Part shown: positions 21,001 to 57,090 of the stretch, one piece after another
How the letters are laid out: each line of letters opens with the position of its first letter
Position numbering within the stretch: position 1 is the stretch's first letter
Notes under the pieces: model-generated
Databases searched by the model: none
What the model was told of the DNA's origin: nothing
The model's input: the letters and a program-made list of their open reading frames with translations, nothing else
Translations under genes and position numbers: made by a program
Origin: a virus
DNA length: 64,000 nt
Reading direction: 5' to 3' (one strand)
IMG/VR virus record: IMGVR_UViG_3300035698_029289
Span: 1-64,000 of that record

Positions 21001-21909
21001 ATGGCGTGGGGATTAATTACATATCAAGATGCCGCGCGTAGAGAAGATCTATTGGATGTTATCGGAGATGTATCTCCTGATGAGACTCCACTTTTGACTC
21101 TTTTCGGCACAAGCACGGCAAAAGGAACTCTGCACGAATGGCTGGCATACTCAGTCTCAAGACCAACTTCGGTATCTGCCGATGTTGAAGGAGCTGATAC
21201 CACATTCGGAGATTTGACTCAACCCAACAGAGTAGTCAATGTTACCCAAATTATTAAAGAACCGGTTCAAGTTTCTCGAACCGAGCGACGGGTTAATGTG
21301 GCTGCAATGGGAGATCCGTATGCTTTCCAAAAAGCAGAAGCACTTCGTCGTCTAAAAATGAATATGGAGTATGCTTTACTGAATGCTGCGAAAGCCTCTG
21401 GATCGTCTGGTTTGGCTCGTCAAATGAATGGAATCGATGCTTTCATCACAACTACTGTTACTGCTCGAAACTCAGGAACTTCGTTTTCTGAAACTGAGCT
21501 AGAAGCTATGGTTTCTGATGCCTGGACAACAGTCGATCCCGACAAGGTATTTGACATGCTTCTTTGTACTTTCAAAATCAAGCAGAAAATTGCCGGGTTC
21601 TCTGGAAACTCTACTAGATATATTGATGCAACTGAACGAAGACTTGTTAAAGACGTGTTGGTTTATGATTCCGCTGGTGGATCTCACAGAATCTTTGCAC
21701 ACAAAGATGTGAGGAACTCAGCAGGTTCAACAACTATCTTGGGCCTACGAGAAGATTTGTACAAGACTGCGTATCTCGACAAACCAATGTTTGAAGAACT
21801 TGCTAAAACAGGTGATGCGGACAAGGGTCACTGGGTAACAGAATTTACGCTTGAGTCTATAGCAGAGAAGGCTAGTTTGAAGCGAACAGGGTATAATCAA
21901 AACGGGTAG
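21001..21909 (+). CDS. major capsid protein (SU10/DUF5309-like)
   Basis: REDLLDVI..VSP.ETP, HEW, NVTQII...VQVS.T, RQMNGI, LAKTGDADK....TEFTLE. Confidence 0.92.
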   Translation: MAWGLITYQDAARREDLLDVIGDVSPDETPLLTLFGTSTAKGTLHEWLAYSVSRPTSVSADVEGADTTFGDLTQPNRVVNVTQIIKEPVQVSRTERRVNVAAMGDPYAFQKAEALRRLKMNMEYALLNAAKASGSSGLARQMNGIDAFITTTVTARNSGTSFSETELEAMVSDAWTTVDPDKVFDMLLCTFKIKQKIAGFSGNSTRYIDATERRLVKDVLVYDSAGGSHRIFAHKDVRNSAGSTTILGLREDLYKTAYLDKPMFEELAKTGDADKGHWVTEFTLESIAEKASLKRTGYNQNG

Positions 21910-21961
21910 TAATACCCGAATGGTTGATATTTTATCCTGGTTTTGGTAGTATGAGAATACT

Positions 21962-22381
21962 ATGAAAACCAAAAGTTGCACTTTTAAAGCTTGTAATAGA
22001 AAACATTATGCCAAAGGTTATTGCCGAAAGCATTACCGACAGCGTATTGGTGAATCTGCCACTAGATGGCAAGTAATTAAATCTGATCCTGTTCTTTATG
22101 AACATTGGAGAGAACTCCAAAGAAAATGGAGCAGAAACCATAAAAGGGATCATCGGAAACATTCTGATAAAATCTACTTTGGTGGTAACAGAGAAATTGC
22201 GATTCAGCGAGACAATGAAAAGTGTGTTCGATGTGGAATGACACGGGAGGAACATCTTGCCAAATGGAAGAAAGACCTTCATGTTAATCACAAAGACCAC
22301 ACTAAAAGGAATGATTTGGATAATCTTGAAACATTATGTCTTCCTTGTCATGCTTCTAAAAGTCACTATAGTAAGAGATAA
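21962..22381 (+). CDS. HNH endonuclease
   Basis: RDNEKCVRCG...LHVNHKD...NDLDNLETLCLPCH; own promoter TTGATA(21924)-17-TAGTAT. Confidence 0.9.
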   Translation: MKTKSCTFKACNRKHYAKGYCRKHYRQRIGESATRWQVIKSDPVLYEHWRELQRKWSRNHKRDHRKHSDKIYFGGNREIAIQRDNEKCVRCGMTREEHLAKWKKDLHVNHKDHTKRNDLDNLETLCLPCHASKSHYSKR

Positions 22382-22529
22382 AATTACCTTGGTTTAAGTT
22401 ACAACCAGAACGGTTAAGGTGTAACATAGGCTTAGAGGGAGACAAAAAACATGCGGACATTTACCGCATTACCCTTGAATAAAATAAATGCGCACTCTAT
22501 GAACTGCCAAAGTTTGCATAGAGTACAAA

Positions 22530-22919
22530 ATGCCAAAGACAATAGTTTATGACAAATTATCGGGAAAACTGCGAAGATGGATGGATGTCCAAGACGCAGA
22601 ACATATAGTGCAACTTAGAAAAAAGAAGGGCAAGTGGACCGTCATTAAAGATTTAATTAAAATATGGATGGAAAGAAGCCCTGAGGAATTCAAAGGGTTT
22701 AAAGTTCATTTGAAAGACATTAAAGAAACGAGGCTTGACAAGAAATTCGGTCAAACACATAGCAAGAAACAAGAGAGAAGGTTAATATTGGTATTTCCGA
22801 TGGCCTTACAGTCTCTTATCAGAACGATATATTCATCAAGTGAATTACCATTTAACCGAGCCTTTTTTCATGAGTTCGGTAAAAGATTCCGGATTTTTCA
22901 GATTCCGGAAAAACTATAG
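22530..22919 (+). CDS. hypothetical protein
   Basis: ORF track; post-capsid position. Confidence 0.7.
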   Translation: MPKTIVYDKLSGKLRRWMDVQDAEHIVQLRKKKGKWTVIKDLIKIWMERSPEEFKGFKVHLKDIKETRLDKKFGQTHSKKQERRLILVFPMALQSLIRTIYSSSELPFNRAFFHEFGKRFRIFQIPEKL

Positions 22920-22936
22920 GAGGGAGGTGAATAAAC

Positions 22937-23290
22937 ATGGCATTAGGCAAAACAATAGGCGATAGAGAATTTTCTAAGTTTGTGGAAGATGAGACTGGCA
23001 AAATAGCAGTGAGAACCCATAATCAGTTTGGAACCGCTGCTCTTGTCTCTTTGACAACATCAGTAGTGAAATCATCGGCTGGGTTTCTCCACGCAGTCAA
23101 TATTGGAGGAGTTAGTGGGCCAACCATCAGCCTTTGGGATAATACTGTTCCGAGTGGAACGTTAATTCATAGATTTCATGCAGATGCTCCTGTTGCCACT
23201 TATCTGTTTGATGTGAAATTTACAACTGGTTTGTCCATTAAGGCAGTTGGAGGTGGGATTAACCCCCAGGTTCAAATTAGTTATAAATAA
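22937..23290 (+). CDS. putative virion beta-sandwich protein
   Basis: VKSSAGFLH.VNI...ISLWDNT...FDVKFTTGL; RBS GGGAGGTGA. Confidence 0.65.
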   Translation: MALGKTIGDREFSKFVEDETGKIAVRTHNQFGTAALVSLTTSVVKSSAGFLHAVNIGGVSGPTISLWDNTVPSGTLIHRFHADAPVATYLFDVKFTTGLSIKAVGGGINPQVQISYK

Positions 23291-23316
23291 AACATCCGAG
23301 TATTTTTTGTGATATA

Positions 23317-25860
23317 ATGAAAAAACTTGGGGTTACGAAATTGATGACTAAACAAAATAGCGGGCCCAAAATCGCCCTCAACATGATCTTGTCGGAGAAC
23401 GAACCCATAGACATGGTTAAAAGGGCAATTGATAGCGTTCGACGCTATGTTGATGGAATTTACATAACCGTCACTTATAAAAAGAAAAAGCCTAAAAAAA
23501 CTCCTCTTTTGAAACTCCTTCGTGATTACAAAGTTAAAGTGAGTTTATTCAAGTGGGTTTATGATTTTTCCGAAGCAAGAAATTTCGCCATGGTTCAAGT
23601 TCCTCGGGACTATTTTTATCTTTTTTGGATTGACGCTGATGACGTTGTTCAGGAAGCAGAACATCTTCCTCGGATTGTTCGGGAATCATATTTGATGGAT
23701 GCTTCTGCGGTTTTTTTCGACTATTGGTATAAAGTTGATTTGGATGAGCAAGGGAAGGTGAGAGAAGTGGTTATTGAGCATAAAAGAGAAAGGCTTATCA
23801 AGACTGATGGAACATACAAATGGATCGGCAAGCTTCACGAGACACTTATTCCTCAAAAAAAAGAGAATGTTAAACAGGTTTTCAGGAAGGAATGTATTAT
23901 CGTTCACCTTAATACCGAAGAGCGAGAAAATAAAAATCTTGAGCGCAATATCAAAATTCTCGAAGAGGCTGCTCGGGAAGAAAAACATAAAGATCCCCGG
24001 ACGCTTCTTTATCTTGCAAAAGCCTATTTTGACAAAGGGAAATTAAGGGATGTTAAAAATCGTAAATTATGGTTTGATATGACTAGGGCACTTTTGTATG
24101 AATATATTGAGGGAACAGGCAAGCCAGGGCAAGAAGGTTATCAGGAAGGTTCTGGATGGAATCAAGAAAGGGCAGTCGCTTGGGGTTATCTTTCTGATAT
24201 GCACCGCCTTGAAGGACGATTGAATGCTGCCATTAAAACGATTAACAATGCTATCGTTGAGGACCCAACTTTCCCTAAATATTATTTGGATTTAGCAATG
24301 ACTTGGACTTTAAAACAGAAATGGGAGAAGGCTGAACATTGGTTGAGAGTAGCACTTCATACCCCAATGCCTAAAACTACTCAAATCCTTAATCCCCGAG
24401 ATATGAAAGCGCAGGCGTTAGAGATTGATTACAACATTGCCAGGGCGAAACAAGATTTGAATAGAAGCGTTAAGGCTGCGGAAAAACTGGTAGAAATCTT
24501 GCCCAATGTTAAGGGGATAAGAGAGCGTCTTGAGGAAGCAAAAGTTCTTAAAGCAACCAATCAAGCGGCCCAGTCTGTTATCTATTTGGCAAAGTATCTT
24601 GAGGCATCAAAAGAACCCCAAAAAATTATTCCTCTTATTCAGGCTATCCCTGCGACAATACAAGGAGAAGAAATTATATCTCAAATGAGACATCGATACT
24701 TGCCATCTCGGATTTGGGATAAAGATGAAATTGCCATTTTGTGTGGACCTGGATTTGAGAAGTGGTCTCCGAAGAACATTAAACAAGGCTTGGGTGGATC
24801 TGAATCGGCAGTTATTTACCTTAGTCGAGAACTGAAAAAGCTGGGTTACAAGATTACCGTTTTTGGAGATCCTCAGGGTGATGCGGGAGACTATGGCGGA
24901 GTTCAATTCCGACCATGGCATGAGATTAATATTAAAGATTCTTTTAACATTTTGGTTTTGTGGCGAGCCCTTGGTTTTGCGGACAACAATTTCTCGGCGA
25001 ATCAAACTTATTTATGGATGCACGATGTCCCCAATAATGCTGATTTCATAAAAGAAAGGTTGGCAAAGATTGATAAAATTATTCCTCTGTCTCAGTATCA
25101 TAAATCTCTATTTAGAATGCAGGAAGACGGAGATTTTGTAGAAATTCCCGATGAAAAGTTCTGGGTTTCTACCAATGGTATTGTTCCTGTGAAAATTAAC
25201 AAAAAGTGGAAGCGTGATCTTTATAGGTGTATTTGGACTTCTAGCTATGATCGAGGACTGGTTTATCTTTTAAATATTTGGTCTGATGTGAAAAAGGCAG
25301 TACCAAAGGCGAATCTTCACATTTATTATGGGTGGAATTTATATGACCGCCTTCATGCAGAGAATCCTGCCAGAATAGAGTGGAAAGCAAAAGTTTCCAA
25401 AATGATGCAACAACCAGGAATCGTTCATCATGGAAGGGTTGGACACAAAGAGTTGAATAGGGCTTATGCAGGATCAGCCATTTTTTCATACCCGACTGAT
25501 TTCCAGGAAATAAATTGTATAAGTGCTATGTCTGCACAGGCCTATGGAGCGATTCCAGTTTGCACAAACTATGCAGCTCTGAAAGAAACTGTTCAACATG
25601 GAATTAAGGTGGACGTAGATATTACTACGAAAACAGACCAAAAAGCATACACAAAGGAATTAATTTCTCTTTTGAAGAACACAAAAAAACAGGAAGAAAT
25701 AAGAAAGCCGATGATGGAATGGGCACAAAAATTCTTCCTATGGAAGAATACGGCCGCAAGTTGGAATCGTCAATTCCGGAAGAAAACTAAGTCCATAAAA
25801 GGAAAAAAACTTTTAAGAAAAGGGGGTGAAAACAATGCAGGACACAACAAAAAGGCCTAA
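23317..25860 (+). CDS. GT2-TPR-GT4 multidomain glycosyltransferase
   Basis: DFSEARN, WIDADD, HE (GT-A); TPR helices; GGSE, TSSYDRGL, EINCISAMSAQA (GT-B); start may be ATG 23344. Confidence 0.9.
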   Translation: MKKLGVTKLMTKQNSGPKIALNMILSENEPIDMVKRAIDSVRRYVDGIYITVTYKKKKPKKTPLLKLLRDYKVKVSLFKWVYDFSEARNFAMVQVPRDYFYLFWIDADDVVQEAEHLPRIVRESYLMDASAVFFDYWYKVDLDEQGKVREVVIEHKRERLIKTDGTYKWIGKLHETLIPQKKENVKQVFRKECIIVHLNTEERENKNLERNIKILEEAAREEKHKDPRTLLYLAKAYFDKGKLRDVKNRKLWFDMTRALLYEYIEGTGKPGQEGYQEGSGWNQERAVAWGYLSDMHRLEGRLNAAIKTINNAIVEDPTFPKYYLDLAMTWTLKQKWEKAEHWLRVALHTPMPKTTQILNPRDMKAQALEIDYNIARAKQDLNRSVKAAEKLVEILPNVKGIRERLEEAKVLKATNQAAQSVIYLAKYLEASKEPQKIIPLIQAIPATIQGEEIISQMRHRYLPSRIWDKDEIAILCGPGFEKWSPKNIKQGLGGSESAVIYLSRELKKLGYKITVFGDPQGDAGDYGGVQFRPWHEINIKDSFNILVLWRALGFADNNFSANQTYLWMHDVPNNADFIKERLAKIDKIIPLSQYHKSLFRMQEDGDFVEIPDEKFWVSTNGIVPVKINKKWKRDLYRCIWTSSYDRGLVYLLNIWSDVKKAVPKANLHIYYGWNLYDRLHAENPARIEWKAKVSKMMQQPGIVHHGRVGHKELNRAYAGSAIFSYPTDFQEINCISAMSAQAYGAIPVCTNYAALKETVQHGIKVDVDITTKTDQKAYTKELISLLKNTKKQEEIRKPMMEWAQKFFLWKNTAASWNRQFRKKTKSIKGKKLLRKGGENNAGHNKKA

Positions 25861-26038
25861 GGGCAAATGTGCTTATTGTGGAAAGGAAATTACCATTGAT
25901 TCTGTTCGGAATGCTAAGGTTATTTATTGTTGTCGTGCTTGTGCTTCCATGGCCCGTTACCAAAAGCGATATGTCGGTCCTAGAAGCGGAAGAGGCGATA
26001 TGCCTACATGGGATAGGAGAAAATTCAAGAGGTCTTAA
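25835..26038 (+). CDS. small Zn-finger protein
   Basis: CAYCG...YCCRAC; RBS GGGGGTGA. Confidence 0.65.
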   Translation: MQDTTKRPKGKCAYCGKEITIDSVRNAKVIYCCRACASMARYQKRYVGPRSGRGDMPTWDRRKFKRS

Positions 26039-27701: not shown

Positions 27702-28201
27702 AAACACGAATAAAGCCCATAAAAGTTTTGGTTGTTGGTTCTTCTGGCAGGAGAGGCAGAAAAGTAATGAAATTTCTCAAAGACAGAGGGTTTCTTGTTT
27801 TCGGTGCTGACAGAATTGCTCAAGAAGAGGACATAAAAGGAACAACAAGGTTTTTCAAGTTGAATCTACGACATCGGGATAGCATTTGGTTGATGTTTAA
27901 TGTTGTTAAGCCGCATGCATTGGTTTATTGTGCCATCGCTAGGGGGAATAGGGGAAACTATGGGACTTTTTTTAGCGTTTTATCCATGGCAATTAAATTT
28001 GGGATAAAAAAGGTGATGGTAATTGTTACGAAACCCCCAATTCACAAAAAACCTAAAGACTTGTTGGAAATAGAAGAGCTTGCTATTGTCTCGGCGACTC
28101 AGCTATTGGCGAAGAAACATGATTTTAAACATGATGTTGTTACTCAAGGGGATAATTTATTGAAAAAAATCAAGAGATTTTTGAAAGAAAGGAGTTTGTG
28201 A
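27689..28201 (+). CDS. degenerate NAD-dependent epimerase-like Rossmann protein
   Basis: VLVVGSSGRRG, KPHALVYCA; no YxxxK seen. Confidence 0.55.
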   Translation: MEKVKTRIKPIKVLVVGSSGRRGRKVMKFLKDRGFLVFGADRIAQEEDIKGTTRFFKLNLRHRDSIWLMFNVVKPHALVYCAIARGNRGNYGTFFSVLSMAIKFGIKKVMVIVTKPPIHKKPKDLLEIEELAIVSATQLLAKKHDFKHDVVTQGDNLLKKIKRFLKERSL

Positions 28202-28205
28202 AAGA

Positions 28206-30274: not shown

Positions 30275-30277
30275 AAA

Positions 30278-30781: not shown

Positions 30782-30790
30782 AGGAGATAT

Positions 30791-38324: not shown

Positions 38325-40639
<2,315 letters not shown>

Positions 40640-40674
40640 GTTGACATAACATAAAGTTATGCTATACTTAAAGC

Positions 40675-41175
40675 ATGGCAAAAGTGAGACTGAATAAATA
40701 TATAGATTGTGGAGATTACTACGAAGTTATCCTCACAAATAAGGATAGAAAAGAAATTGCTAGGGCGAAAGTTGATAAAGGGGATGTGGAGAAGGTGAAA
40801 ATATGCCGATGGGGGTTAAATAGCACTACGGGAACTACGCAAGGGTGGGTAAATAAAAGGATGACTGCTATGCACATAGTTATTTTGGGAAAGAAGGATG
40901 GCTATGTAACAGACCATATAAATCATGATGTGTTGGACAATCGGAGAAGTAACATACGGCACGCAACGAAAAGTCAGAATGCAATGAATCAGCGGGATGT
41001 CGCTGGTGTTTATTTTGTCAAGCGGGTTACAGTAAAGACAAAAAAGTGGGCTGCGCAAATTTACAAAGATGGCAAGCACATTACTCTTGGATACTTTTTA
41101 ACAAGGGAAGAAGCCACGAAAGCTAGAAGGGAAGCAGAAAAAAAGTATTATGAAGAATTTGCTTATAGGGATTAA
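40675..41175 (+). CDS. HNH-AP2 homing endonuclease
   Basis: DHINHDVLDNRRSNIR; GVYF...KWAAQI...LGYF...EEA..ARREAE; promoter TTGACA(40641)-16-TATACT. Confidence 0.92.
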   Translation: MAKVRLNKYIDCGDYYEVILTNKDRKEIARAKVDKGDVEKVKICRWGLNSTTGTTQGWVNKRMTAMHIVILGKKDGYVTDHINHDVLDNRRSNIRHATKSQNAMNQRDVAGVYFVKRVTVKTKKWAAQIYKDGKHITLGYFLTREEATKARREAEKKYYEEFAYRD

Positions 41176-41195
41176 TTTTATTACTCATACTTAAA

Positions 41196-45910: not shown

Positions 45911-46228
45911 ATGGGAGATTTAGTAAACCTATGGGGAGAATCAGGTCGAAGTATCATCAATGATGACACATCGCCAACCCTTACTCTTAAAAATATAGAG
46001 TCTACTGCTACCACTGGTGGCAGTGCTCTTCAAGTTGAGGCTTTGGGTACTGGTCCTACTCTTAATGTTATAGTTTCAGGAACTTCTGGAACAACTCTTA
46101 AATTGAACAACCTTGCAAAAGGTTATGTCTCAACTAACTCATTATCTACTATTTCCTATGCCATGAGGGTAGACATTGGTGGAGTGATTTTTTACATGCC
46201 AGTTTATCTCGGTGTAGAAATAGCATAA
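45911..46228 (+). CDS. short fibre-like virion protein
   Basis: Ser/Thr-rich; C-terminus paralogous to next gene. Confidence 0.7.
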   Translation: MGDLVNLWGESGRSIINDDTSPTLTLKNIESTATTGGSALQVEALGTGPTLNVIVSGTSGTTLKLNNLAKGYVSTNSLSTISYAMRVDIGGVIFYMPVYLGVEIA

Positions 46229-46292: not shown

Positions 46293-46895
46293 ATGCAGTT
46301 TTTACGTAACGAAAGTCAGGAAGCAAGAGCGGCTTATGAAAACCTCTTGAAGTCATCGGAGGGTGGTTATGTTAATGCCACTGGTGACACAATGACAGGT
46401 AATCTTATAGTGCCTACAGTGACAATTACTAGCTTGGTTTCTGGAGCACGATTTCAAGGAAAAGACATTATCCTTTCCAGCCTTGCTTCAATAAGAAGGG
46501 TGGAATCAGTTCTTTATCGAGGAATAAATCAAGTTCTAACCAGCATTGCTTCTATTGCAAGGGTGGAATCCCCTTATTATGAAGGAATCAAGTTGAATAT
46601 TACAAGCTTGATTTCTGCGGCAAGGGTTAAAACCCTAAGAGCAGACACCATTCATCTTAACGTATCAAGCTTAGCTTCTATAGCTAGGGTTGGTGGAAAA
46701 GTTGAAGTTTGGTCTGATCTTGCTGGCCCAGCGATTGATTTCAATGTCTCTGGACCGTCTGGAACAGTTTTCAAGATAGGCAATATCGAACAAGGTTATG
46801 TCTCAACTAACTCAACAGCGACTATTTCCTTTGCTATGAGGGTTGATATTGGCGGAACAATTTATTATATGCCAGTTTATTTGGGCAAAGCCTAA
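46293..46895 (+). CDS. fibre-like virion protein
   Basis: YVNATGDTMTGNL motif; SLAS/SIAR repeats. Confidence 0.75.
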   Translation: MQFLRNESQEARAAYENLLKSSEGGYVNATGDTMTGNLIVPTVTITSLVSGARFQGKDIILSSLASIRRVESVLYRGINQVLTSIASIARVESPYYEGIKLNITSLISAARVKTLRADTIHLNVSSLASIARVGGKVEVWSDLAGPAIDFNVSGPSGTVFKIGNIEQGYVSTNSTATISFAMRVDIGGTIYYMPVYLGKA

Positions 46896-46912: not shown

Positions 46913-47530
46913 ATGGCCTTGTGTAAATGCGGTTGCGGTCGTGAAACAAAAATTGTTTGTGGTAAACCAAATCGGTTTATTCATGGGCATAGTGGGAATT
47001 TTTATAAAAATGGGCACGAGTTTCAAGGAGACATAGCAAGGTCAAACTATTTCAAAAAAGGTTACACTCCTTGGAACAAAGATAAAAAAGGGGTTTTTTC
47101 TGTGGAAGCACGTAAAAAACAATCAGAAGCCGCCAAAAATCAAAAAAATAGAAATATTGAGGGATTGAAATTAGGCTGGGGATATTGGAGGGATAAACAT
47201 AACCCACATATGGTTGGAGAAAAGAATCCTAATTACAAAGGAGGCATTAGTAAAATTAAAAAGAATAGTCGTCGATTAGACATGGAAACGCTTGAGTATA
47301 AACAATGGCGAAGAGCGGTTTTTAAGAGAGATTATTGGACATGTTTGTCTTGTGGTGAGTCTAAGGGTGGAAATTTTATAGCTCACCATATTAAAAAATA
47401 TGATGACTATCCTTCTTTAAAATATAATGTTGATAATGGATTTACACTTTGTGGAAAATGTCACCTATTTACATATGGGTATGAAGAAGATTATGAAAAA
47501 TATTTTTTGGAGATATTAAAATGGCAATAA
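46913..47530 (+). CDS. HNH endonuclease (NUMOD-type N-terminus)
   Basis: CKCGCG, PWNK, WRRAVFKRDYWTC..C, AHHI, NGFTLCGKCH. Confidence 0.9.
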   Translation: MALCKCGCGRETKIVCGKPNRFIHGHSGNFYKNGHEFQGDIARSNYFKKGYTPWNKDKKGVFSVEARKKQSEAAKNQKNRNIEGLKLGWGYWRDKHNPHMVGEKNPNYKGGISKIKKNSRRLDMETLEYKQWRRAVFKRDYWTCLSCGESKGGNFIAHHIKKYDDYPSLKYNVDNGFTLCGKCHLFTYGYEEDYEKYFLEILKWQ

Positions 47531-48213
47531 CAGTAGACGAGGTACAAAGTCGCATAGCAAGTTTAGTTGATCAGTCAATAACTACTCCTACTCAAACAGG
47601 GAGTGAATATGCGCTAAGATTGAAATATCTGAATCGGGCTATCTCCGAATGGGGACAAGCCTTTGATTGGGAAGCGTTGCGGAAAGATTATTGGCCTGGG
47701 GTAACGGGAGTTTCTCAGGCCTCCATTTCTTTGCCTGACGATTTTCATAAAGTGGCGGGTTTCCCCCTATATTATTCGGGTGGAGTATCCGGAGGTGAAG
47801 AGCGGGAGGTTATTAATGCAGAAGCAACAAAGCTGTATTCTAGCACCGACAAATACTGCTATGTGCTGGGGGACAGGGCAAATGGTCACACCCTAGTCTG
47901 GAGCCCCGGGACGCTAGCTTCTGGCGCCTCTCTGAAGATTCCTTACTATTCTTATGTAACCTCCGTTGCTTCGCCGGCGAATGAAATTATCGTGTCCGAC
48001 CCAGGGTTTGTGGTTAATCGAGTAATTGCCTATATTTTCGAAAGCCGGTCGGATGAGAGGTTTCAGGAAACAGAAGTGAAAGCCCGGGAAAGTTTAATTG
48101 AGATGATTAATTCGGAACAAGTACGGAAATTCTCTTCGTATGGGGCAGGAACGAGCAAAAATGTACAAGGAGATCTCCGGCTCTACCACGGTTTTAGGGT
48201 GGGCCGGGATTAG
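47521..48213 (+). CDS. head-tail adaptor / tail tubular A-like protein
   Basis: LNRAI..W, SLPDDF; sits before nozzle gene. Confidence 0.65.
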   Translation: MAITVDEVQSRIASLVDQSITTPTQTGSEYALRLKYLNRAISEWGQAFDWEALRKDYWPGVTGVSQASISLPDDFHKVAGFPLYYSGGVSGGEEREVINAEATKLYSSTDKYCYVLGDRANGHTLVWSPGTLASGASLKIPYYSYVTSVASPANEIIVSDPGFVVNRVIAYIFESRSDERFQETEVKARESLIEMINSEQVRKFSSYGAGTSKNVQGDLRLYHGFRVGRD

Positions 48214-48216
48214 GCT

Positions 48217-48999
48217 ATGAGGGATAAGAAGGGAAAGTTCCAAAAAGGCCATGCCCCATGGAATAAGGGAAAGACTGGAGTTTATTCGGAAGAACGACTA
48301 GAGGAATTAAGCCATTGTGCCAAAACTGGAGTGACGGGAATGTTGGGGAAAAAGCATAGCGAAGGAACAAAAGAAAAAATGAGCATAGTTAAAAGAGGAA
48401 AAGTGTTTTCCGAAAAACATAAGAAAAACTTAAGCAAGGCACATAGGAAAAGAGGAACAATTCCTCCTAGGTGGTGGGAAGATCCCATTCTTGCCACTAA
48501 AACCATGGGGAAGCTAAAGAAGAAAAAAGTGGTTATTCGGTGTGGAGTTTGTGGAAAAAAGTTTAAAGTTATTCCTTCTAGGGCTAAAACGGCTAATTTC
48601 TGTTCAAAGCAATGTCATAATAAATCAATGATTGGTCGTCTTCTTACTAAAGAGTGGAAAGAAAAAATGATTAAAAATACCCTAATGGCGATGTTAAAAC
48701 GTCCCACCTCTCTTGAAAAACAAATGATTGCCCTAATCAAAAAACACAATCTTCCCTATAAATATGTTGGTGATGGGGGCTTTTTAATAGGCTATAAAAA
48801 TCCCGATTTCGTAAACATTAATGGAGAAAAGAAATTGATTGAAATTGGCAATGAATTTCATCACAAACCGCCATACACGAAGAATCGGAGGAAACACTTC
48901 GCCAAATACGGTTGGGAAAGCTATATTTTTATAGGAGATGAATTGGATGAGGGAAAAATACTAAAAATCCTAGGGAGTAAATTATGTTACAACGATTAA
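48217..48999 (+). CDS. NUMOD3 plus Vsr/DUF559-like endonuclease
   Basis: GKKHSEGTKEKMS; PTSLEK...YKYVGDG...PDF...LIEI...FHH. Confidence 0.8.
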   Translation: MRDKKGKFQKGHAPWNKGKTGVYSEERLEELSHCAKTGVTGMLGKKHSEGTKEKMSIVKRGKVFSEKHKKNLSKAHRKRGTIPPRWWEDPILATKTMGKLKKKKVVIRCGVCGKKFKVIPSRAKTANFCSKQCHNKSMIGRLLTKEWKEKMIKNTLMAMLKRPTSLEKQMIALIKKHNLPYKYVGDGGFLIGYKNPDFVNINGEKKLIEIGNEFHHKPPYTKNRRKHFAKYGWESYIFIGDELDEGKILKILGSKLCYND

Positions 49000-50918
49000 A
49001 ACAACCAAAATTTAAAGCACCACGTCAAGCCGTAGCTGATTGGGACAATTTTCGCGGAGGATTAAATTCTTTACTTCGTCCCACAGAACTTGCAAAGAAC
49101 GAATTGGCTCAAATGGAGAATTTAATGCTTATCGGTCGTGGAGTTCCCACTAAGCGATGGGGAACACAAAATTATTTCCTTGCAGGAGTGACTGGTTACG
49201 GCAGAGGTTTGTTTCACGCCAAATCGGCTGTGGGAACAAGTGAGGTTTTAGGCATTACTGACTGGGGGCTTTTGGTCAAAAGAAGCGGAGCAAGTTATAC
49301 GGTTTTGACTGGTGCTTCCTGGGGATCGGGATATAACCTTGAAGCCACGCAGCTTAATAATAGGGTATATTTGGTCAACGGACAGAGAGAGTTGGTAAGA
49401 TATGACTTTTCCACCCTGACAGGGTTTCCCACATTGTCGGTTCCAGCTGGTGTGGCGGCAACTAACCTTTCGGGGGCAACCGGTGACACTACTTATTCAT
49501 GGAGAATTGCCGCAACTTCTCAAGTGGGAGAAACGCTTGGATCAGCGGCCGTTGCCATGGCGAGCCTGCCCCAAGAACTTTCTGATACGAGCATTAGAGT
49601 TCAATGGACGCCAGTTTCGGCAGCCTCAGGGGACCTTACCGGTTATAATATTTATCGGGGTTCACCCGGTGATGAAACATGGTTGGCTTTTGTGGACGAT
49701 GATACTAGCTCTTATGATGATGCGGGCTTAGATGTATCGCAACTGCGGGTGCCTCAAACCAAAGATACAACCGGAGGACCGATTGCCAAATGGATTATCC
49801 GGTACGAAGACAGATTGATTCTTGCTGGGATTTCTGGTGAACCCACTAAAATCATGATTTCGGGAAGAGTTCCGAACCAAGACAAATTCACTTGGCCTTA
49901 TGGAGGAGGATATGTTTTGGTCGATCCCGACACAGGAGATGAGATAACTGGTCTTGCCGTTCACCAGGGAAAGATTATTGTTTTCAAGGAAAATTCTGTT
50001 TGGCAAGTAACTCTTAGTACAATAACAGTTGGCAATTTCACGATTCTTGAGCCTTCTTATGAATTGATTACTGCTTCTCAGGGTTGCACCAGCCACCGAT
50101 CGATTGTGCCGGTTGAAAACGATTTGCTTTTCTGCAACAGGCAGGGTGTATATATCTTGGGATTCGAACCCAATATTTTGGCAGCTGTTTTGAGAACCAA
50201 TGAGTTGTCAGTGAAAATCCGGCCATTTTTTGAAGCGATTACTCCGACAGACTTTGATGATGCTAGTGCGAATTACTTTGACCACAAGTATGTTTTGTCT
50301 TTTCCTGGTGCCAAAAAATGTATTGTCTTTGATAGGGAAAGAGCCGCTTGGGTCGGACCATGGACCACGGGGTTTGGAACAAACAAGTTTATTAAATATG
50401 TTGATTCGGGCAATGTTGAAAGATTGCTGGGAATAGATGCAGAAGACAATTATGTCAGTGAATTTTCAAAGACGTTGAATAGCGACAAGGGAACTGCCTT
50501 CAGGACTCTTTTGAAAACACGGAAAGAAGATTTTGGAGACTGGACGATTTTCAAGACCATCAATGAATCATTTTTATCTTTCAGGAATGTTTTGGGGAGT
50601 GTTAATATCAATATTTTCTTGGAGGGAAGAGCGGGAGAGATAATCACCGCCAAAACATTTTCCATTGTCAGCCAAAAGGGTGTTTCCGGCTGGGGAACCG
50701 ATCAATGGGGATTGACTCAATGGGGGTTATCAAAGAATGACGCAGAACTGTCTTCAGAAGAATTAATTAGGCAGGCGTTGCTTTATAAAACCGCACGGAC
50801 TTTCCAGGTGGAATTGATTTCGTCTGCCACAAGAGACAACTATGAATTACTAGGCATTAAGACTTTCTCTACCTTGCAAGGGCGTGGCTCAAGCCCATCT
50901 GATTGGAGAGCCTCTTAA
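48984..50918 (+). CDS. tail nozzle / packaged-DNA stabilisation protein (gp10-like)
   Basis: NFRGGLN N-terminus, Fn3-like GYNIYRG, propeller EITGLA...IVFKE...GCTSHRSI. Confidence 0.8.
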   Translation: MLQRLKQPKFKAPRQAVADWDNFRGGLNSLLRPTELAKNELAQMENLMLIGRGVPTKRWGTQNYFLAGVTGYGRGLFHAKSAVGTSEVLGITDWGLLVKRSGASYTVLTGASWGSGYNLEATQLNNRVYLVNGQRELVRYDFSTLTGFPTLSVPAGVAATNLSGATGDTTYSWRIAATSQVGETLGSAAVAMASLPQELSDTSIRVQWTPVSAASGDLTGYNIYRGSPGDETWLAFVDDDTSSYDDAGLDVSQLRVPQTKDTTGGPIAKWIIRYEDRLILAGISGEPTKIMISGRVPNQDKFTWPYGGGYVLVDPDTGDEITGLAVHQGKIIVFKENSVWQVTLSTITVGNFTILEPSYELITASQGCTSHRSIVPVENDLLFCNRQGVYILGFEPNILAAVLRTNELSVKIRPFFEAITPTDFDDASANYFDHKYVLSFPGAKKCIVFDRERAAWVGPWTTGFGTNKFIKYVDSGNVERLLGIDAEDNYVSEFSKTLNSDKGTAFRTLLKTRKEDFGDWTIFKTINESFLSFRNVLGSVNINIFLEGRAGEIITAKTFSIVSQKGVSGWGTDQWGLTQWGLSKNDAELSSEELIRQALLYKTARTFQVELISSATRDNYELLGIKTFSTLQGRGSSPSDWRAS

Positions 50919-50922
50919 TCCC

Positions 50923-51020
50923 TTGACAAGGAAGCGAATTGTTGTTTTAATTAATTATAGAGTCTGTTAAGCGGGAAACGCTCGCAGACGACAATAGGGT
51001 CTAACCGACCCTTTTTTATT
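50923..51020 (+). promoter_or_regulatory. late leader 4
   Basis: TTGACA-17-TTTAAT with TG; GTCTGT-TA-AGCG-GGAAA-CGCT-C-GCAGAC; terminator AGGGTC/GACCCT-TTTTT. Confidence 0.75.
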
Positions 51021-51046
51021 GGAATAAATTAAAAGAAAGGAAGAAA

Positions 51047-51727
51047 ATGTCCTGGCCTAAAGGAAAACCAACATGGAATAAAGGGAAAATTGAATGGAAA
51101 AAGTGTAAAGTGTGTGGGAAGAAAATTAGAAAGTGGCGAGTTTATTGTTCGAAAGAATGTGTATCAATTGGAAGAAGTGGAGAAAATAGATGTGGATTTA
51201 AAAAAGGACATATTCCTTGGAACAAAGATATGAAAAGGAGTGAAGAATTTAAAAAGGCATGCCGAGAGAGAGCACTTAGATTAAAACAAAAACCACCCAA
51301 ATATAATAAAAGAGGAAAAAATCATTGGAATTGGAAAGGTGGTTTACCAGTTTGTGTTGAGTGTGGGAAAATAATCTCTAGGTATAGGACTCGATGTCTC
51401 AAGTGTCATCTTGGAACAAAAAGAATGACTACTTTAGAAAAGAAAGTTCAGAATGTGATTAATAAATATAAATTGCCATATAAATTTGTTGGAAATGGAG
51501 AATTTTTTATTGAAAGGAAAAATCCTGATTTCATTAATATAAATGGAGAGAAAAAAGCTATTGAAGTTTATTGGAAGCGACACAAAGATAAATTTAAAAA
51601 GGGAGGATTTGTGGGTTGGAAAAAAGAAAGAGAAACAGTTTTTTCTAAGTATGGTTGGACAATTATTTTTTTAGATGAAAATAACATGATAGAAGAAAAA
51701 ATATTAGAAGCCTTAAGAAAGGGGTGA
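51047..51727 (+). CDS. Zn-finger plus Vsr/DUF559-like endonuclease
   Basis: PWNK repeats; TTLEK...LPYKFVGNG...NPDFININGEKKAIEV; C-terminus paralogous to 48217 gene. Confidence 0.8.
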   Translation: MSWPKGKPTWNKGKIEWKKCKVCGKKIRKWRVYCSKECVSIGRSGENRCGFKKGHIPWNKDMKRSEEFKKACRERALRLKQKPPKYNKRGKNHWNWKGGLPVCVECGKIISRYRTRCLKCHLGTKRMTTLEKKVQNVINKYKLPYKFVGNGEFFIERKNPDFININGEKKAIEVYWKRHKDKFKKGGFVGWKKERETVFSKYGWTIIFLDENNMIEEKILEALRKG

Positions 51728-51732
51728 GTTGA

Positions 51733-52554
51733 ATTTCAGCAAAACTCTGGGAATCGGCAGGCGTAAACGCTTTTCAGACAACCCTTAATGGATCAATAGC
51801 AAGTGACACTACAACCATTACTCTGTCTTCAGTAACAAACTTGGTTGCCCCAAGTATTCTTGTTATTGACCGGCAAGATGGTGTTGGAAATGATACTCCA
51901 ACGAAAAGAGAATACATTTCTTTTACTGGAATTAGCGGGAATGATCTTACAGGAGTCACTCGTGGGGTAGCCAGTTCTACTGCTCAGGCCCACTCTTCCG
52001 GTGCTTTAGTTGAAGCGATCCCTTCTGCAACTCACTGGACGGATTTAGTAGATTTCTTACAGGTAGAACACTCTTCTGCTGGGAAGCATGTTCTCTCCAC
52101 GGTGACTATTGCTTATGCTGAGGTGGCAAGATTGGTTGTGACTTCTTTAGCCTCACTTGCTGTTGTAAATGTAAAAGGACAATTTGTGTGGACAAGTGCA
52201 GGAGCTCTAGTAACTTCTTTGGCAACTGCTCCTGGGGATAGTCATTTACCTTTTTTGAGAGCAAGGAAGAATTTGACTTTAAATGGTGTTTGGGCAGGTT
52301 TAAATTCTGCTCCTTCAACAGCAGCATTTCAGGCTAATATCAGTTATCGTTCAGAACCAACAGGGGCTCATACGACCCTTTTGTCAACCGCATTAACGAT
52401 TGACGTGGGCGAATATGAGTCGAGAACTGCGGCGACTCCAGTAGTTTTAGGATTGACAAGTTTAGCATCAGGGACTCTTTTGAGCCCGAGCATTGATGCT
52501 CCGGGTGATGGAGGAGACCTCACTTTGACTATAGCTGCGACAGAGCGACCATAA
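51733..52554 (+). CDS. tail/virion protein, probable ATT start
   Basis: Frame open from ATT 51733 (ISAKLWESAG...TTLNGSI) with GGGGTGA RBS; EYISFTG...LTGVTRG...AHSSGA motif. Confidence 0.75.
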   Translation: MSAKLWESAGVNAFQTTLNGSIASDTTTITLSSVTNLVAPSILVIDRQDGVGNDTPTKREYISFTGISGNDLTGVTRGVASSTAQAHSSGALVEAIPSATHWTDLVDFLQVEHSSAGKHVLSTVTIAYAEVARLVVTSLASLAVVNVKGQFVWTSAGALVTSLATAPGDSHLPFLRARKNLTLNGVWAGLNSAPSTAAFQANISYRSEPTGAHTTLLSTALTIDVGEYESRTAATPVVLGLTSLASGTLLSPSIDAPGDGGDLTLTIAATERP

Positions 52555-53132
52555 TGGCAAACATACTTATTAATTCTGATTTTGAGAATGGAAGTGGAGA
52601 CCGAACCACAGAAGGGTGGCTTGGCAATAGTTCTGCTTATGGTACTTATCTTATGGCTGCTTATGGAACTTTATCCTTTCAGGCTACCGCTTATCATGGT
52701 TCTCAGGCTATTAAACTTGATGTTGGACAAAGCTCTTGGCTTGAAGTAAGTAATGTTGATACAAATGATACTAATGCAATCAAGGCCTATTGTCCTGCGA
52801 TTACAGGAAACACAAAATATAAACTTACTGGATGGCAGAAAAGCGATGGCTTCAGCGTTGGTGTTCAAGGATTATGTGTTTATATTAGGGAATTTGATTC
52901 GGATGGAGCTGTTATTGTTAATTTGGCTACGGATGGTATGTTAGGCACTCAAGACTGGACAGAAGTAACACACACTTGGACAACTCACGCTGATGCCGCC
53001 TACATAGGAATTACCTATATAAGGGCACACGGAGATGGAGGAGCTACTGGCGATTTATATGCCGATTACTTTAGTTTGGAAGAAGTAGGAGAAGAAGAAA
53101 AAAACAACATTTATGGATATTTTAATTGCTAG
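52554..53132 (+). CDS. CBM4/9-like carbohydrate-binding virion protein
   Basis: NILINSDFE, YKLTGW.K, GTQDWTE, YADYFSL. Confidence 0.7.
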   Translation: MANILINSDFENGSGDRTTEGWLGNSSAYGTYLMAAYGTLSFQATAYHGSQAIKLDVGQSSWLEVSNVDTNDTNAIKAYCPAITGNTKYKLTGWQKSDGFSVGVQGLCVYIREFDSDGAVIVNLATDGMLGTQDWTEVTHTWTTHADAAYIGITYIRAHGDGGATGDLYADYFSLEEVGEEEKNNIYGYFNC

Positions 53133-53134
53133 AC

Positions 53135-53791
53135 ATGAGAAATAAAAACATTATACATAAATGTAAAAACTGTGGAAAGAAATTTTTCCATCGGTCGAAA
53201 GGAGCTAATAAATATTGTTCTCATAAATGTTATGTCGAACATTATTGGACAAAGGAAAGACGAGAAGCTCAAGCAATAAAAAGTAGAAAAAGAATATTAA
53301 GTAAAAATCCTATGGAAAATAAAGAAAATAGAAAAAAAGTAAGTTTGTCTAAACTAGGAAAAAAAAGAAAGCCATTTAGTAAAAAATGCAAAGAAAATAT
53401 GAGCAATGCTCATAAGGGAGAAAAGAGTTGGTTTTGGGGAAAAAAGGGAAGTCAGCATCCTGGTTGGAGAGGTGGTTTATCATCATTGAATCAATTAATT
53501 AGAAGCAATGGTTTAATGGACTCTTGGAGAAGAAAAATATTCGAAAGAGACAATTTTACTTGTCAGGAGTGTAAAGGAAATGGGCGGTTAGTAGCACATC
53601 ATATTGTTACTTTCATAACTCTCTTGCGAAAAAACCATATAACAACAGTAAAAGAGGCAGAAAAATGTGATGAACTATGGAATCTTGATAATGGTATAAC
53701 TCTATGTAAAAAGTGTCATGACCCTACGATTAAAAGAGAGAAATTATATGAAGAAAGATACAAGGAAATTATTGAAAGTTTCAATGTTTAA
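53135..53791 (+). CDS. HNH endonuclease
   Basis: WRRKIFERDNFTCQEC, AHHI, NGITLCKKCH. Confidence 0.9.
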   Translation: MRNKNIIHKCKNCGKKFFHRSKGANKYCSHKCYVEHYWTKERREAQAIKSRKRILSKNPMENKENRKKVSLSKLGKKRKPFSKKCKENMSNAHKGEKSWFWGKKGSQHPGWRGGLSSLNQLIRSNGLMDSWRRKIFERDNFTCQECKGNGRLVAHHIVTFITLLRKNHITTVKEAEKCDELWNLDNGITLCKKCHDPTIKREKLYEERYKEIIESFNV

Positions 53792-53796
53792 CTAAT

Positions 53797-53967
53797 ATGC
53801 CAGGACCAGGAAGTCGCATTTCTACTTGGAAAATTTGCCCAGAATGTGGAGAGGAATTTTTATCTTACACAAGGAAGATTTGTGAGGATTGTTATCAAAG
53901 ATTGAGATATCAAAGAAAGAAGAAAAAGTTACTTCAAAAGAAAAAAGAATTGTTGAACATAAAATGA
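53797..53967 (+). CDS. small Zn-finger protein (56 aa)
   Basis: CPECG...CEDC then basic tail. Confidence 0.6.
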   Translation: MPGPGSRISTWKICPECGEEFLSYTRKICEDCYQRLRYQRKKKKLLQKKKELLNIK

Positions 53968-54119
53968 AAGAAAAGGATTTTGTTATCAGGAAATATTGGG
54001 GTTCTTTTGGCATCAGAAGAAGTGCTAAACCAACTGTTGAATCAGCTGAACTAACTCGTGATGAAAAGAACGCCGAATGGGTGCGAAAAAAAAATAAAGA
54101 GGCGGAAAGCTGGCTTTAA
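53964..54119 (+). CDS. hypothetical protein
   Basis: ATGA overlap. Confidence 0.45.
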   Translation: MKEKDFVIRKYWGSFGIRRSAKPTVESAELTRDEKNAEWVRKKNKEAESWL

Positions 54120-54178
54120 TCAGTTTACTGGATTTTACAAAGGGCGTTGGTGGGTTAAGGGTAGACCGATGAAAAGAA

Positions 54179-54472
54179 ATGAAAGAAAGGTTGTGGAAGG
54201 CAATATCAGAAATAGACGGAGAAATCTTTTCTCTGGGAATGAAAGATGCCGAAATAATCCGCTTACCTGAAAGTGAATGGATTGAAGGAGGAGAACATGG
54301 TATTTTTGCGACAAGACATAAGTCAGATGCCGAAAAAGTTATTTACTCTGCCGAACATAGAAAGGTTTTGTCAATACCATTAAACATGAAAGTGATACCT
54401 ATTATTGGTGAGATAAAGGATGATAGAGGGAAGACAGTAGTTTGTGAAAGGATTTTAATAGAAGGTGAATAA
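54179..54472 (+). CDS. hypothetical protein
   Basis: ORF track. Confidence 0.6.
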   Translation: MKERLWKAISEIDGEIFSLGMKDAEIIRLPESEWIEGGEHGIFATRHKSDAEKVIYSAEHRKVLSIPLNMKVIPIIGEIKDDRGKTVVCERILIEGE

Positions 54473-56432
54473 AGAAATAGGATTACACTATTTAGGGGGT
54501 GACTTTAAGACAAGAACCCAAATCAGACGGAAACTTCTCTCTGAGGAGTTGACTGCTCCGCTCCAATTAACAAAACCTGCTTTAGTTAGAACCTTCGCTG
54601 AATGGCAGCCGATTATAAACAGACGGCAAAAAGAATACCAGGAACTCCTTGGAATACCAGAAACAATCCACATTGAAATCGCTACTGAAAAACCAATCCT
54701 GCTTGTCCCCATAGGGGATGTTCATGCCGAGCATCCTGAAACCAATCTTGAACAATTTGGTAAAGACATAGATTTAGCAAAATCAGTTAATGCGTATTTT
54801 ATCACTTTAGGAGATTTAACCAATAGTATCTTCTGGAAAGCAGAACCTTCCTTAATGACTGCCCAAGAGTCAACAATGTATATCAGGTCGGCCTTGAAAT
54901 ATATGGCGGAAGATGGACACCTTTTGGCTTCATGGCTTGGCGACCATGATTGTCTTGATGAGAAAACGGAAGTATATACAAAACGAGGTTGGTTAAAATG
55001 GAATGAGCTTAATGAAAAGGATAATCTTTTGACTATAAACCCCGATGGTGGGTTGTTAGAATGGCATAAATACGAAAAGAAAATTGTTGAAGATTTTGAT
55101 GGAGAGCTAATTCATATCAAGGGTAAAAATATTGACTTGTTGGGAACAGAAAACCATCGGGTGTTTTATCAAAAGCGAAGAACTGATAAATATGATTTTA
55201 TCCCCTTGGAACAGTTTGCTAGTTTAAAGTGGGCAGACCATTATGGAATTCCTAATGCTTCAACTTTTAATTTTAGTGATTATCCGATATCAGATGAACT
55301 AATTCGATTGGTGGCGTGGTTGATTACTGATGGGTGGATTCAAACAAGAAAAGGCTATGGTTATCAACGGGTATGTTATACACAAAAGGAAGAGGATGCT
55401 CATTTAATTACTGATATTTTGGATGGACTTGGTTTTAAGTATTCTGCTAAAAGAAGGATTAGAACAAGAGATAAAATTGATGGCATGAAAATTAAATCCT
55501 TAAAGCCATCTATTGATATAGGAGTTTGTTCCAAAGATTCTAAGAAAATTTTAGATTTGATTAAAGATAAAAAATCCATGCCGTCATGGGTTTATAAATT
55601 GAGTGATAGGCAGTTTGACGCTTTTCTGGATTCTTTGATTGATGGTGATGGAACTCGGCTTCCGAGAATGAAGAATTGTGCTTGTTTCTATCAAAAGAGC
55701 AAGAAATTGATTGATGAATTACAGGCTTTGTGTGCGATGCACAATATTAAAACCAACATTTACGAGTATAAAAACCGAATGGGGAATAAGCAATATCGGC
55801 TCAATATAAATTTTAGGAAAGACACTCGATTGGTTTCTCCAAAAGCGGTTAGAGAAAATTACAAGGGGAAGATTTGGGATGTTTCAATACCACCTAACAG
55901 AAACTTCTTTGTTAGAAGAAATGGCAAAGCGTATTTTACTGGTAATTCTTGGGCTTTTGACAAACACGGAAGCCATACACTTTACGCTGATTTTTGGGAG
56001 AAGTTTAACGCCCATTTACTAGACGGAGTATCTTATGTTGATATTGGACTTAATAACGGAGATACAGTCCAGAAATACGGGATAGTTGGCTCTCATCGCC
56101 ACCCTGGCCACAGTATCTACAATTCCAGCCATCAATGTTTAAGACAATGGAGAGATGAGGGAGTAGGGTCTCTTATTAGTATTTCTGCTCACAAACACAC
56201 TAAGGCCCATAATCAACAAACCCATAAACTTTATGGTGGAAAAGAGGTTGTGTTTCATTCTGTTGCCATAGGAACATATAAAGAATCAGACCGATATAGC
56301 AGAAAACACGGTTGGCCACGCAAGGGAGAAAAGACAGCTGGAGCGTTTGGAATAGTGCTTTATCCAGGCAAGGAAAAAATTCACATTTTCTGGGAATTAG
56401 AAGATGCGGTAGACGCACTAAGCAAGGCTTGA
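54465..56432 (+). CDS. calcineurin-like metallophosphoesterase with intein
   Basis: GDVH, GDL, GDHD, SH, AHKH motifs. Confidence 0.85.
   Translation: MNKEIGLHYLGGDFKTRTQIRRKLLSEELTAPLQLTKPALVRTFAEWQPIINRRQKEYQELLGIPETIHIEIATEKPILLVPIGDVHAEHPETNLEQFGKDIDLAKSVNAYFITLGDLTNSIFWKAEPSLMTAQESTMYIRSALKYMAEDGHLLASWLGDHDCLDEKTEVYTKRGWLKWNELNEKDNLLTINPDGGLLEWHKYEKKIVEDFDGELIHIKGKNIDLLGTENHRVFYQKRRTDKYDFIPLEQFASLKWADHYGIPNASTFNFSDYPISDELIRLVAWLITDGWIQTRKGYGYQRVCYTQKEEDAHLITDILDGLGFKYSAKRRIRTRDKIDGMKIKSLKPSIDIGVCSKDSKKILDLIKDKKSMPSWVYKLSDRQFDAFLDSLIDGDGTRLPRMKNCACFYQKSKKLIDELQALCAMHNIKTNIYEYKNRMGNKQYRLNINFRKDTRLVSPKAVRENYKGKIWDVSIPPNRNFFVRRNGKAYFTGNSWAFDKHGSHTLYADFWEKFNAHLLDGVSYVDIGLNNGDTVQKYGIVGSHRHPGHSIYNSSHQCLRQWRDEGVGSLISISAHKHTKAHNQQTHKLYGGKEVVFHSVAIGTYKESDRYSRKHGWPRKGEKTAGAFGIVLYPGKEKIHIFWELEDAVDALSKA
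54951..55946 (+). mobile_element. intein with LAGLIDADG endonuclease (332 aa)
   Basis: HD|CLDEKTEVYTKRGW, TENH block B, LITDGW and LIDGDG, FFVRRNGKAYFTGN|S. Confidence 0.93.
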
Positions 56433-56507
56433 AAATAAGATGTCCAGTATTTTCTTTTCTTATTGGAGAAATGGTATAATAATGAAAATGAGGACAGAAT
56501 AAATATT

Positions 56508-57026
56508 ATGCCAAAAGGAGTTTATTTTCGTACTGAAGCAACTAGAAAGAAAATAAGTGAAGCCCGTATGGGTAAAAAGCTTTCTGAAAAAACTAAACGG
56601 AAATTGAGTGAAATTCATAAACGGATTGGCACTAGGCCACTTTCTCGTAAAGGCATCATTTTGAGTGAAGAGCTTAAAAAGAAACTAAGTAAAATTCATA
56701 AAAAAATCGGAACTATGCCGCCACACCCTAAAGGAAAAGACCATCCTAACTGGAAAGGTGGCTTCTCGCTTTATCCTATTGATTGGACAGAAACCCTAAA
56801 AGAATCTATCAGACAAAGAGATAACTGTGTTTGTCAGTTATGCGGAATACATCAAGGCGAATTAAAAGGATTTCATAAGAAACTAGATGTTCACCATATT
56901 GATTATAATAAAGATAATCTAAATCCAGACAACTTGATTTCACTTTGTAAAAGTTGTCACTTGAAAACTAATTATAATCGGGAATATTGGCTTGAATATT
57001 TTCAACAAAAGGAAGTGAAAATATAA
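56508..57026 (+). CDS. NUMOD3 plus HNH endonuclease
   Basis: SEKTKRKLSE repeats; IRQRDNCVCQLC, VHHIDYNKDN..NLISLCKSCH. Confidence 0.92.
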   Translation: MPKGVYFRTEATRKKISEARMGKKLSEKTKRKLSEIHKRIGTRPLSRKGIILSEELKKKLSKIHKKIGTMPPHPKGKDHPNWKGGFSLYPIDWTETLKESIRQRDNCVCQLCGIHQGELKGFHKKLDVHHIDYNKDNLNPDNLISLCKSCHLKTNYNREYWLEYFQQKEVKI

Positions 57027-57090
57027 ATGATAAACTGGCGTGATGGAATATTGAACAGGCGATAGATTTTATGGCAATCTGATTATTCCC

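Follow-up and report, generated by a model that had tools for sequence, protein, structure and literature searches.

Homing endonucleases that rewrite the end of a gene have long been known from fungal mitochondria, where mobile endonuclease open reading frames (mORFs) make gene hybrids, which include atp6 of Allomyces macrogynus, atp6, atp9, cox2 and nad3 of Glomus, atp9 of Rhizopus and cox2 of Mortierella (PMC3630166). Each hybrid comprises a foreign C-terminal piece, an endonuclease open reading frame (ORF) and a displaced native piece that is nearer to the endonuclease-free relative (PMC3630166). Here we describe a comparable arrangement in a 64-kb stretch of phage DNA (hereafter, the window), the first 64 kb of the 74-kb IMG/VR virus record IMGVR_UViG_3300035698_029289, in which seven free-standing homing-endonuclease genes lie at the borders of other genes. 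A first-pass annotation of this DNA had proposed a splicing-free invasion of essential genes. The mode of invasion is not new, as the same gene-end replacement has been published for the fungal endonuclease ORFs (PMC3630166), and the window supplies further cases, from a phage, of a process known mostly from those mitochondria without requiring a new mechanism. As with mORFs, the endonuclease ORF sits in the 3' end of a gene, a foreign piece completes that gene, the native piece lies downstream and there is no splicing. The two systems differ in host (organelle versus phage), in nuclease family (LAGLIDADG or GIY-YIG versus HNH and Vsr/EDxHD) and in the size of the duplications (tens of codons versus 3-13 codons). 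In the window, moreover, the endonuclease ORFs are out of phase with the host gene and seemingly have their own promoters, and three or four cases occur in one genome.

T4-like phages perform intronless homing with free-standing endonucleases such as SegF, SegG and the products of the Mob genes: the neighbouring gene of an endonuclease-free phage is cut, flanking donor sequence is co-converted, and immunity results from sequence differences. The window resembles these phages in having free-standing genes between conserved genes, but classical intronless homing involves homologous exchange on both sides and leaves no duplicated gene end, whereas here the right junction falls inside a gene end. 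Intronless and collaborative homing are both established (PMC12724721); in the collaborative form a free-standing endonuclease lies beside an intron-interrupted gene, as in cyanophage psbA with F-CphI and in T3/T7-like phages (cited in PMC12724721 and PMC10055350). One related locus, L007, has exactly that layout, with a group I intron 24 nt from the end of its capsid gene and an HNH gene downstream, but the window has no intron, and its site is interrupted by the insertion together with a replacement tail. In the HEG-islands (clusters of homing endonuclease genes, HEGs) of ICP1-like and other phages, interchangeable endonuclease families surround essential genes, and small cargo-gene fragments have been noted beside the endonuclease genes (Barth, Dunham and Seed 2023, PMC10055350). 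The window is similar in that several endonuclease genes flank essential structural genes with cargo-gene fragments adjoining, but the HEG-island study treated fragments in general and did not pair live with displaced tails at codon resolution (PMC10055350).

We assign a probability of about 0.75 to the reading that these are free-standing homing endonuclease genes that have homed to the 3' borders (at 51047, the 5' border) of conserved late genes, and that the gene-end remnants behind them are scars of one-sided homing, homologous on the left and illegitimate on the right, and not a built-in device. The source is an uncultured salt-lake phage, and the window covers its late-gene region, with + strand genes from about 12 kb onward; a phage database search of the region gave no DNA match. 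A nuclease domain of a known homing-endonuclease family is present in all seven inserted genes (H1-H7). Not all of them are HNH: five have HNH or HNH_3 domains (H1 at 21962, H2 at 40675, H3 at 46913, H6 at 53135 and H7 at 56463; several with NUMOD3 motifs), whereas those at 48217 and 51047 combine NUMOD3 with a Vsr/EDxHD-like fold. An intein is present in addition. Related genomes differ by presence or absence of the insert at the same locus without other rearrangement, with empty alleles at about 90 capsid loci (versus about 9 occupied), at 12 of 12 fibre loci, at one phosphatase locus (L052) and, for the sites at 46913, 48217 and 51047, in G001. All of the strings quoted in the first-pass annotation are present in the sequence where it placed them, and comparison with cassette-less relatives, a check that it had suggested, showed these to agree with the downstream remnant and with the sequence beyond it. 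Two diverged copies of the gene end flank the ORF, with the upstream copy completing the reading frame of the host gene, in three of the four tail duplications originally listed (capsid, fibre and phosphatase) but not in the fourth (gp192). As in mORFs, the downstream copy is nearer to the DNA of endonuclease-free relatives, although such short pieces yield only small numbers.

The major capsid protein gene (21001..21909, + strand; phrog_1328 major head protein, E value 2e-56) ends in the live tail YNQNG-stop (21892-21909) and is followed by the HNH endonuclease gene H1 (21962..22381, + strand; PF01844, E value 1.5e-5; phrog_1271). Behind H1 lies a putative displaced native capsid-gene end, an untranslated remnant that again reads YNQNG-stop (22398..22417, + strand). 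Of 3318 stop-terminated hexapeptides on the + strand, no other matches the capsid tail GYNQNG as well as SYNQNG-stop (22400-22417), and the pair is real. We fetched capsid relatives from 28 viral and 80 metagenome loci, and at these 108 related loci the capsid protein ends in G-Y-x-x-x-G-stop. At the empty loci, about 90 in number, this tail is followed by a spacer of ~100 nt with two conserved hairpins and then by a homologue of 22530-22919, and the window DNA 3' of the remnant is collinear with that spacer. Across the 15 coding bases, the remnant matches empty alleles at a mean of 13.9 positions (all 15 in L002 and L005), compared with 11.75 for the live tail. The two window copies differ at 5-7 of 21 bases, and the five differences in the translated copy are all synonymous. 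The spacer hairpins (22418-22529) are conserved in position and partly in sequence across many distant relatives (L001-L028).

The live capsid tail was earlier proposed to be recoded so as to destroy its own target, but it lies within the natural variation of empty alleles: it differs from some of them (L009, L011 and L027) at two of 15 bases, which is within the spread between one empty allele and another. Deliberate recoding is therefore unnecessary, as the site is already split by the insertion. Related HNH genes occupy the capsid border at L003, L021, L007 (same contig as L159), L137, L168, L176 and L205, yet among the roughly nine capsid alleles occupied by such genes only the window has a downstream remnant, which identifies it as a sporadic scar and not a constant part of a cassette. 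L003 shares with the window the live tail, the 17 nt after its stop and a 66%-identical HNH gene at the same site, but its right junction lies in the intergenic spacer, ~20 nt past the native stop. Right junctions are thus variable even where the HNH gene and left flank are homologous.

A second displaced end follows the metallophosphatase gene (54465..56432, + strand), whose live tail is WELEDAVDALSKA-stop (56391-56432). This gene also contains an intein (54951-55946, + strand), an in-frame insert that begins with Cys (C163), ends with Asn (N494) followed by Ser (S495), carries a LAGLIDADG_3 domain (PF14528, E value 2.4e-10) and is missing from the homologues P0005 and L052; nine of the 11 fetched homologues (P0002-P0004 and P0006-P0011) carry an intein in the same place. 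Downstream lies the HNH endonuclease gene H7 (56463..57026, + strand, probable ATG at 56508; PF01844, E value 7e-6) and then the putative displaced native end, WNIEQAIDFMAI-stop (57044..57082, + strand). When about 64,000 positions were compared with WELEDAVDAL of the live tail, WNIEQAIDFM (57044) scored highest after WELEDAVDAL itself. The one empty locus with context, L052, ends in WNLEQAIESLTR-stop and matches the remnant at 20 of 24 bases but the live tail at only 16. Both results support a real pair. The two copies are of unequal length and disagree at 6 of 10 residues, each fitting a different natural tail type. P0002 and P0005, two other members of the family, have tails like the live one, as would be predicted if the live tail came from a donor allele.

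The third case concerns a collagen-like tail fibre gene (38684..40639, + strand; tail-fibre PHROGs) with the live tail LYFTHV-stop (40619-40639). It is followed by the HNH_3 endonuclease gene H2 (40675..41175, + strand; PF13392, E value 5e-7; phrog_99, E value 5e-30) and by a putative displaced native end, FITHT-stop (41177..41194, + strand), one base ahead of the ATG of the next gene (41196). Fibre homologues end in YFTHT-stop, YFTHV-stop or IFITHGA-stop, and NFITHT-stop (41177-41194) ranks 3rd-4th among 3319 stop-terminated hexapeptides. All 12 related loci are empty, and in each of them 0-20 nt separate the fibre stop from the ATG that follows; the remnant stop is placed likewise in the window, and this placement and the rank indicate that the YFTHV/FITHT pair is real. 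Empty fibre tails (YFTHT-stop and IFITHGA-stop) are slightly nearer to the remnant than to the live tail (14-16 versus 12-14 of 21 bases). Contigs of other sequencing runs contain many skips and back-joins in the collagen repeats at 38700-40150, which reflect either repeat-length variation or assembly trouble.

For three further endonucleases a duplicated stop, ribosome-binding site and start had been proposed; one such duplication is supported (51047), one is better described as a tail remnant (48217) and one is not sustained (46913). At the first of these, the NUMOD3 and Vsr/EDxHD-like endonuclease gene H5 (51047..51727, + strand) is inserted at the start of gp237, a conserved virion gene. 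A structural model of the H5 C-terminal domain (mean predicted local distance difference test score, 81) best matched I-Bth0305I (3r3p; E value 3.5e-4; template modelling score, 0.65) and then Vsr. A ribosome-binding site and start are duplicated at the H5 borders (51033-51051 and 51715-51737), and the pattern AAGAAAGG-N(5-14)-AT[GT]TC occurs twice in 64 kb, once at each border. The conserved N-terminus of gp237 has no ATG, GTG or TTG, and an ATT at 51733 stands behind a good ribosome-binding site. Across 19 genomes (the window and 18 homologous loci), an ATT-TCx start occurs elsewhere only in G002 (L065; 5954), also with an endonuclease abutting the start, while the others use ATG and one TTG.

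The endonuclease gene at 48217 (H4, 48217..48999, + strand), also of the NUMOD3 and Vsr/EDxHD-like type, is 44% identical to H5 in its C-terminal nuclease domain, and 11 of the 16 relatives examined lack an insert at its site. It is flanked by the genes for the adaptor-like protein gp230 (47521-48213, + strand) and a 644-residue virion protein (48984-50918, + strand). Its borders read GGGATTAGGCTATG and GGGAGTAAATTATG, a pattern recognized post hoc. The right copy encodes P-R-E-stop (48969-48980) followed by ATG, like the G-R-D-stop/ATG junction of empty relatives, and is probably a 3-codon remnant of the gp230 tail G-R-D-stop. At 46913, the HNH gene H3 (46913..47530, + strand; PF01844) lies between gp200 and gp230 and overlaps the gp230 start by 8-10 nt, at a site that is empty in G001; the 9-mer shared by its borders, TAAAATGGC, is found at five places in the window and represents a generic start context. 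Finally, H6 (53135..53791, + strand; NUMOD3 and HNH) follows gp192, for which the first-pass annotation had paired FNC-stop with FNV-stop. This pair is at chance level, as IESFNV-stop ranks only 59th of 3319 stop-terminated hexapeptides and gp192 homologues have unrelated ends without a conserved FN[CV] tail. No gp192 relatives with gene context were found in viral contigs, and single-protein locus scans with gp230, gp655 and gp258 returned no matches.

Promoter-like sites are found ahead of three of the inserted genes (21962, 40675 and 56508), consistent with the earlier suggestion that several would carry a promoter of their own. The site before H1 is TTGATA-17-TAGTAT with a TG (21924..21952, + strand; 9 nt before the ATG), that before H2 is TTGACA-16-TATACT with a TG (40641..40668, + strand; 6 nt before the ATG), and the third is TGGTATAAT ahead of 56508. 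With 11 of 12 consensus matches, the H2 site scores joint-highest in 20 kb with two others and is the sole one with a TG before the -10 element. The -10 elements end 6 and 9 nt before the H2 and H1 ATGs, with no ribosome-binding site between, which suggests that both mRNAs are leaderless or near-leaderless. At the other end, the endonuclease ORFs stop at the start of the following gene or a few bases from it, a position that would keep translational coupling in the operon.

The capsid-gene end appears to be a repeatedly broken and repaired site with layered scars, as judged from intron, decayed-intron and tail-vestige layouts in relatives. In L007, an intact-looking 226-nt group I intron (3862-4087; RF00028, 45.6 bits, E value 3e-10) sits between K-R and T-G-Y-N-Q-N-G-stop, and the HNH gene just downstream contains one in-frame stop. 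The window remnant starts 20 nt from the native end, 4 nt off this intron site, and the two positions probably mark one break hot spot. L137 (2290-2530) aligns to the L007 intron from the core onward, although it has no significant Rfam match, and contains a 5'-truncated, decayed intron with a complete in-frame tail, TGYSQTG-stop, in place of the intron 5' end. The old second exon (..NQNG-stop, about 2500-2520) follows, its stop lying inside the TTGACA of the HNH promoter. Tail-like codons that overlap the -35 hexamer also lie between the live stop and the HNH gene in the window and L003 (Y-P-N-G) and in L176 (GYIITG-stop, 932-952). In the window, this possible older vestige, Y-P-N-G-stop (21913..21927, + strand), is short and tentative, and its stop overlaps the -35 hexamer of the H1 promoter; it may be a remnant of greater age or a target copy resembling an operator. 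I-TevI is autorepressed through an operator, and the vestige, if it is a degenerate target copy lying on the promoter, could act in the same way. A further group I intron (33 bits) lies near the 5' end of the capsid gene in L190 (142-381).

It is conceivable, though quite improbable, that the capsid 3' end preserves the whole life cycle of a selfish element at one break hot spot. The proposed stages would be an empty site; an intron with an HNH gene (L007); a dead intron, truncated at its 5' end, that follows a restored tail (L137); an HNH gene with a vestigial older tail whose stop forms the promoter -35 (window, L003 and L176); and a displaced native tail (window only). If so, phage endonucleases and introns would regularly supplant one another through tail replacement, on which selection could act.

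Under one-sided homing, an endonuclease from a diverged, co-infecting donor phage would cut the recipient gene a few codons from its end, and repair would copy the donor. Because the left exchange would be homologous, within the conserved gene body, the donor's last codons would be carried along and complete the reading frame. On the right, where spacers and neighbours differ, homology would be poor, and this would lead to an illegitimate join at or near the cut that strands the recipient's own last 3-13 codons, untranslated, behind the endonuclease gene. Immunity of the occupied allele would stem mainly from the splitting of its site by the insertion. Once formed, a remnant and its spacer, including those at the capsid gene, could act as a right homology arm in later homing. 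Cleavage specificity, the direction of transfer and promoter use are inferred.

Several observations weigh against this reading. The relatives share only ~45-86% protein identity, and neither a co-conversion tract nor a recent transfer is visible among them; likewise, sliding identity plots of the capsid gene against 14 relatives, all at about 70% DNA identity, gave no sign of a mosaic or of co-conversion. The remnants span only 18-39 nt, 2% of control gene pairs reach the level of the fibre remnant by itself, and for the capsid remnant to be intact it must be either recent or under some selection. The search for a near-identical empty allele found none. In favour of the reading, identical contigs from four further salt-lake metagenome runs (2017-2018) carry the occupied form without differences. 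No joint removing a cassette was seen in those contigs, which says nothing about the absence of empty alleles; the joints listed have sides of at most 35 nt and connect paralogous endonuclease motifs or collagen repeats.

If the replacement tail were instead a constant, selected part of a compact cassette of tail, promoter and endonuclease, recoded for self-immunity, then the live tail, the 17 nt after its stop and the homologous HNH gene common to the window and L003 would be readily explained, as would the tight spacing from endonuclease stop to remnant (0-17 nt) and the promoter-like sites right after the new stop. However, roughly eight other occupied capsid alleles have no downstream remnant, and the live tail is in the natural range of empty alleles. 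A scan for tail duplications revealed only 2 of 21 HEG-flanked pairs with a score of at least 13, both in the window, and most HEGs in relatives lie cleanly between genes. We regard a constant cassette with a built-in replacement tail as unlikely. Group I introns do occur in the capsid gene of relatives (L007 and L190), and the inserts could in principle be group I or II introns with endonuclease ORFs, the downstream copy being the true last exon. This is very improbable: the window has no intron family match at E values up to 0.05, and hence no recognizable group I or II core around any endonuclease ORF; the non-coding flanks of the ORFs (0-75 nt) are too short for a ribozyme core; and the upstream genes already finish with a family-typical tail and stop. 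The inserts therefore appear to be unspliced, as originally proposed.

The direct repeats flanking the inserts also recall a target-site duplication made by transposition-like insertion, or a tandem duplication later split by an endonuclease gene. Copies made in either way would start out identical, but at the capsid gene it is the untranslated copy that is unchanged relative to empty alleles (15 of 15 bases), while the selected copy carries the synonymous differences. Nor are there identical short direct repeats at both ends of the inserts, as a transposon would leave, given the 5-7 differences in 21 bases at the capsid gene and the unequal phosphatase copies, whose 6 differing residues in 10 make each like a different natural tail; such an origin is accordingly highly unlikely. 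Chance similarity, with no duplication at all, does hold for the gp192 pair and the 46913 junction. As an account of the whole, it is extremely improbable, since nothing else in the entire window matches as well as the capsid and phosphatase remnants, each of which lies exactly behind an endonuclease gene.

Read as one-sided homing, a single genome here documents, several times over and down to the codon, how homing endonucleases can remodel the termini of essential phage genes with no intron or intein involved, and intron-bearing relatives are available for comparison. The dead gene ends would be by-products that can be used to map breaks and joins. For annotation, short orphan peptides behind endonuclease genes are probably scars and not genes, and one downstream gene appears to start at ATT.

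Further endonuclease genes and repeats were seen in the window and its relatives. In G003, two Vsr/EDxHD-type endonuclease genes (52779-53090 and 54479-54793) lie on either side of an adaptor-like gene, and one of these sites holds an HNH gene in G002, indicating that different nuclease families alternate at the same borders. Adjacent window genes at 45911-46228 and 46293-46895 share 50-odd C-terminal residues (..VDIGG.I.YMPVYLG..); considered as an endonuclease scar, this pair was rejected as tandem paralogues, and it was tandem pairs of this kind, in L076, L077 and G001, that topped the control scores in the tail-duplication scan. The window also contains a cluster of at least 10 tRNA genes (7134-9787, - strand) and a weak, sub-threshold tRNA-Sec-like match. 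Lastly, a conserved unit consisting of the promoter TTGACA-17-TTTAAT, a small hairpin and a terminator lies ahead of late gene blocks in the window (50918-51046 and 57083-57199), G002 (52131-52242) and G003 (56755-56910), and two of the endonuclease sites directly adjoin such units.

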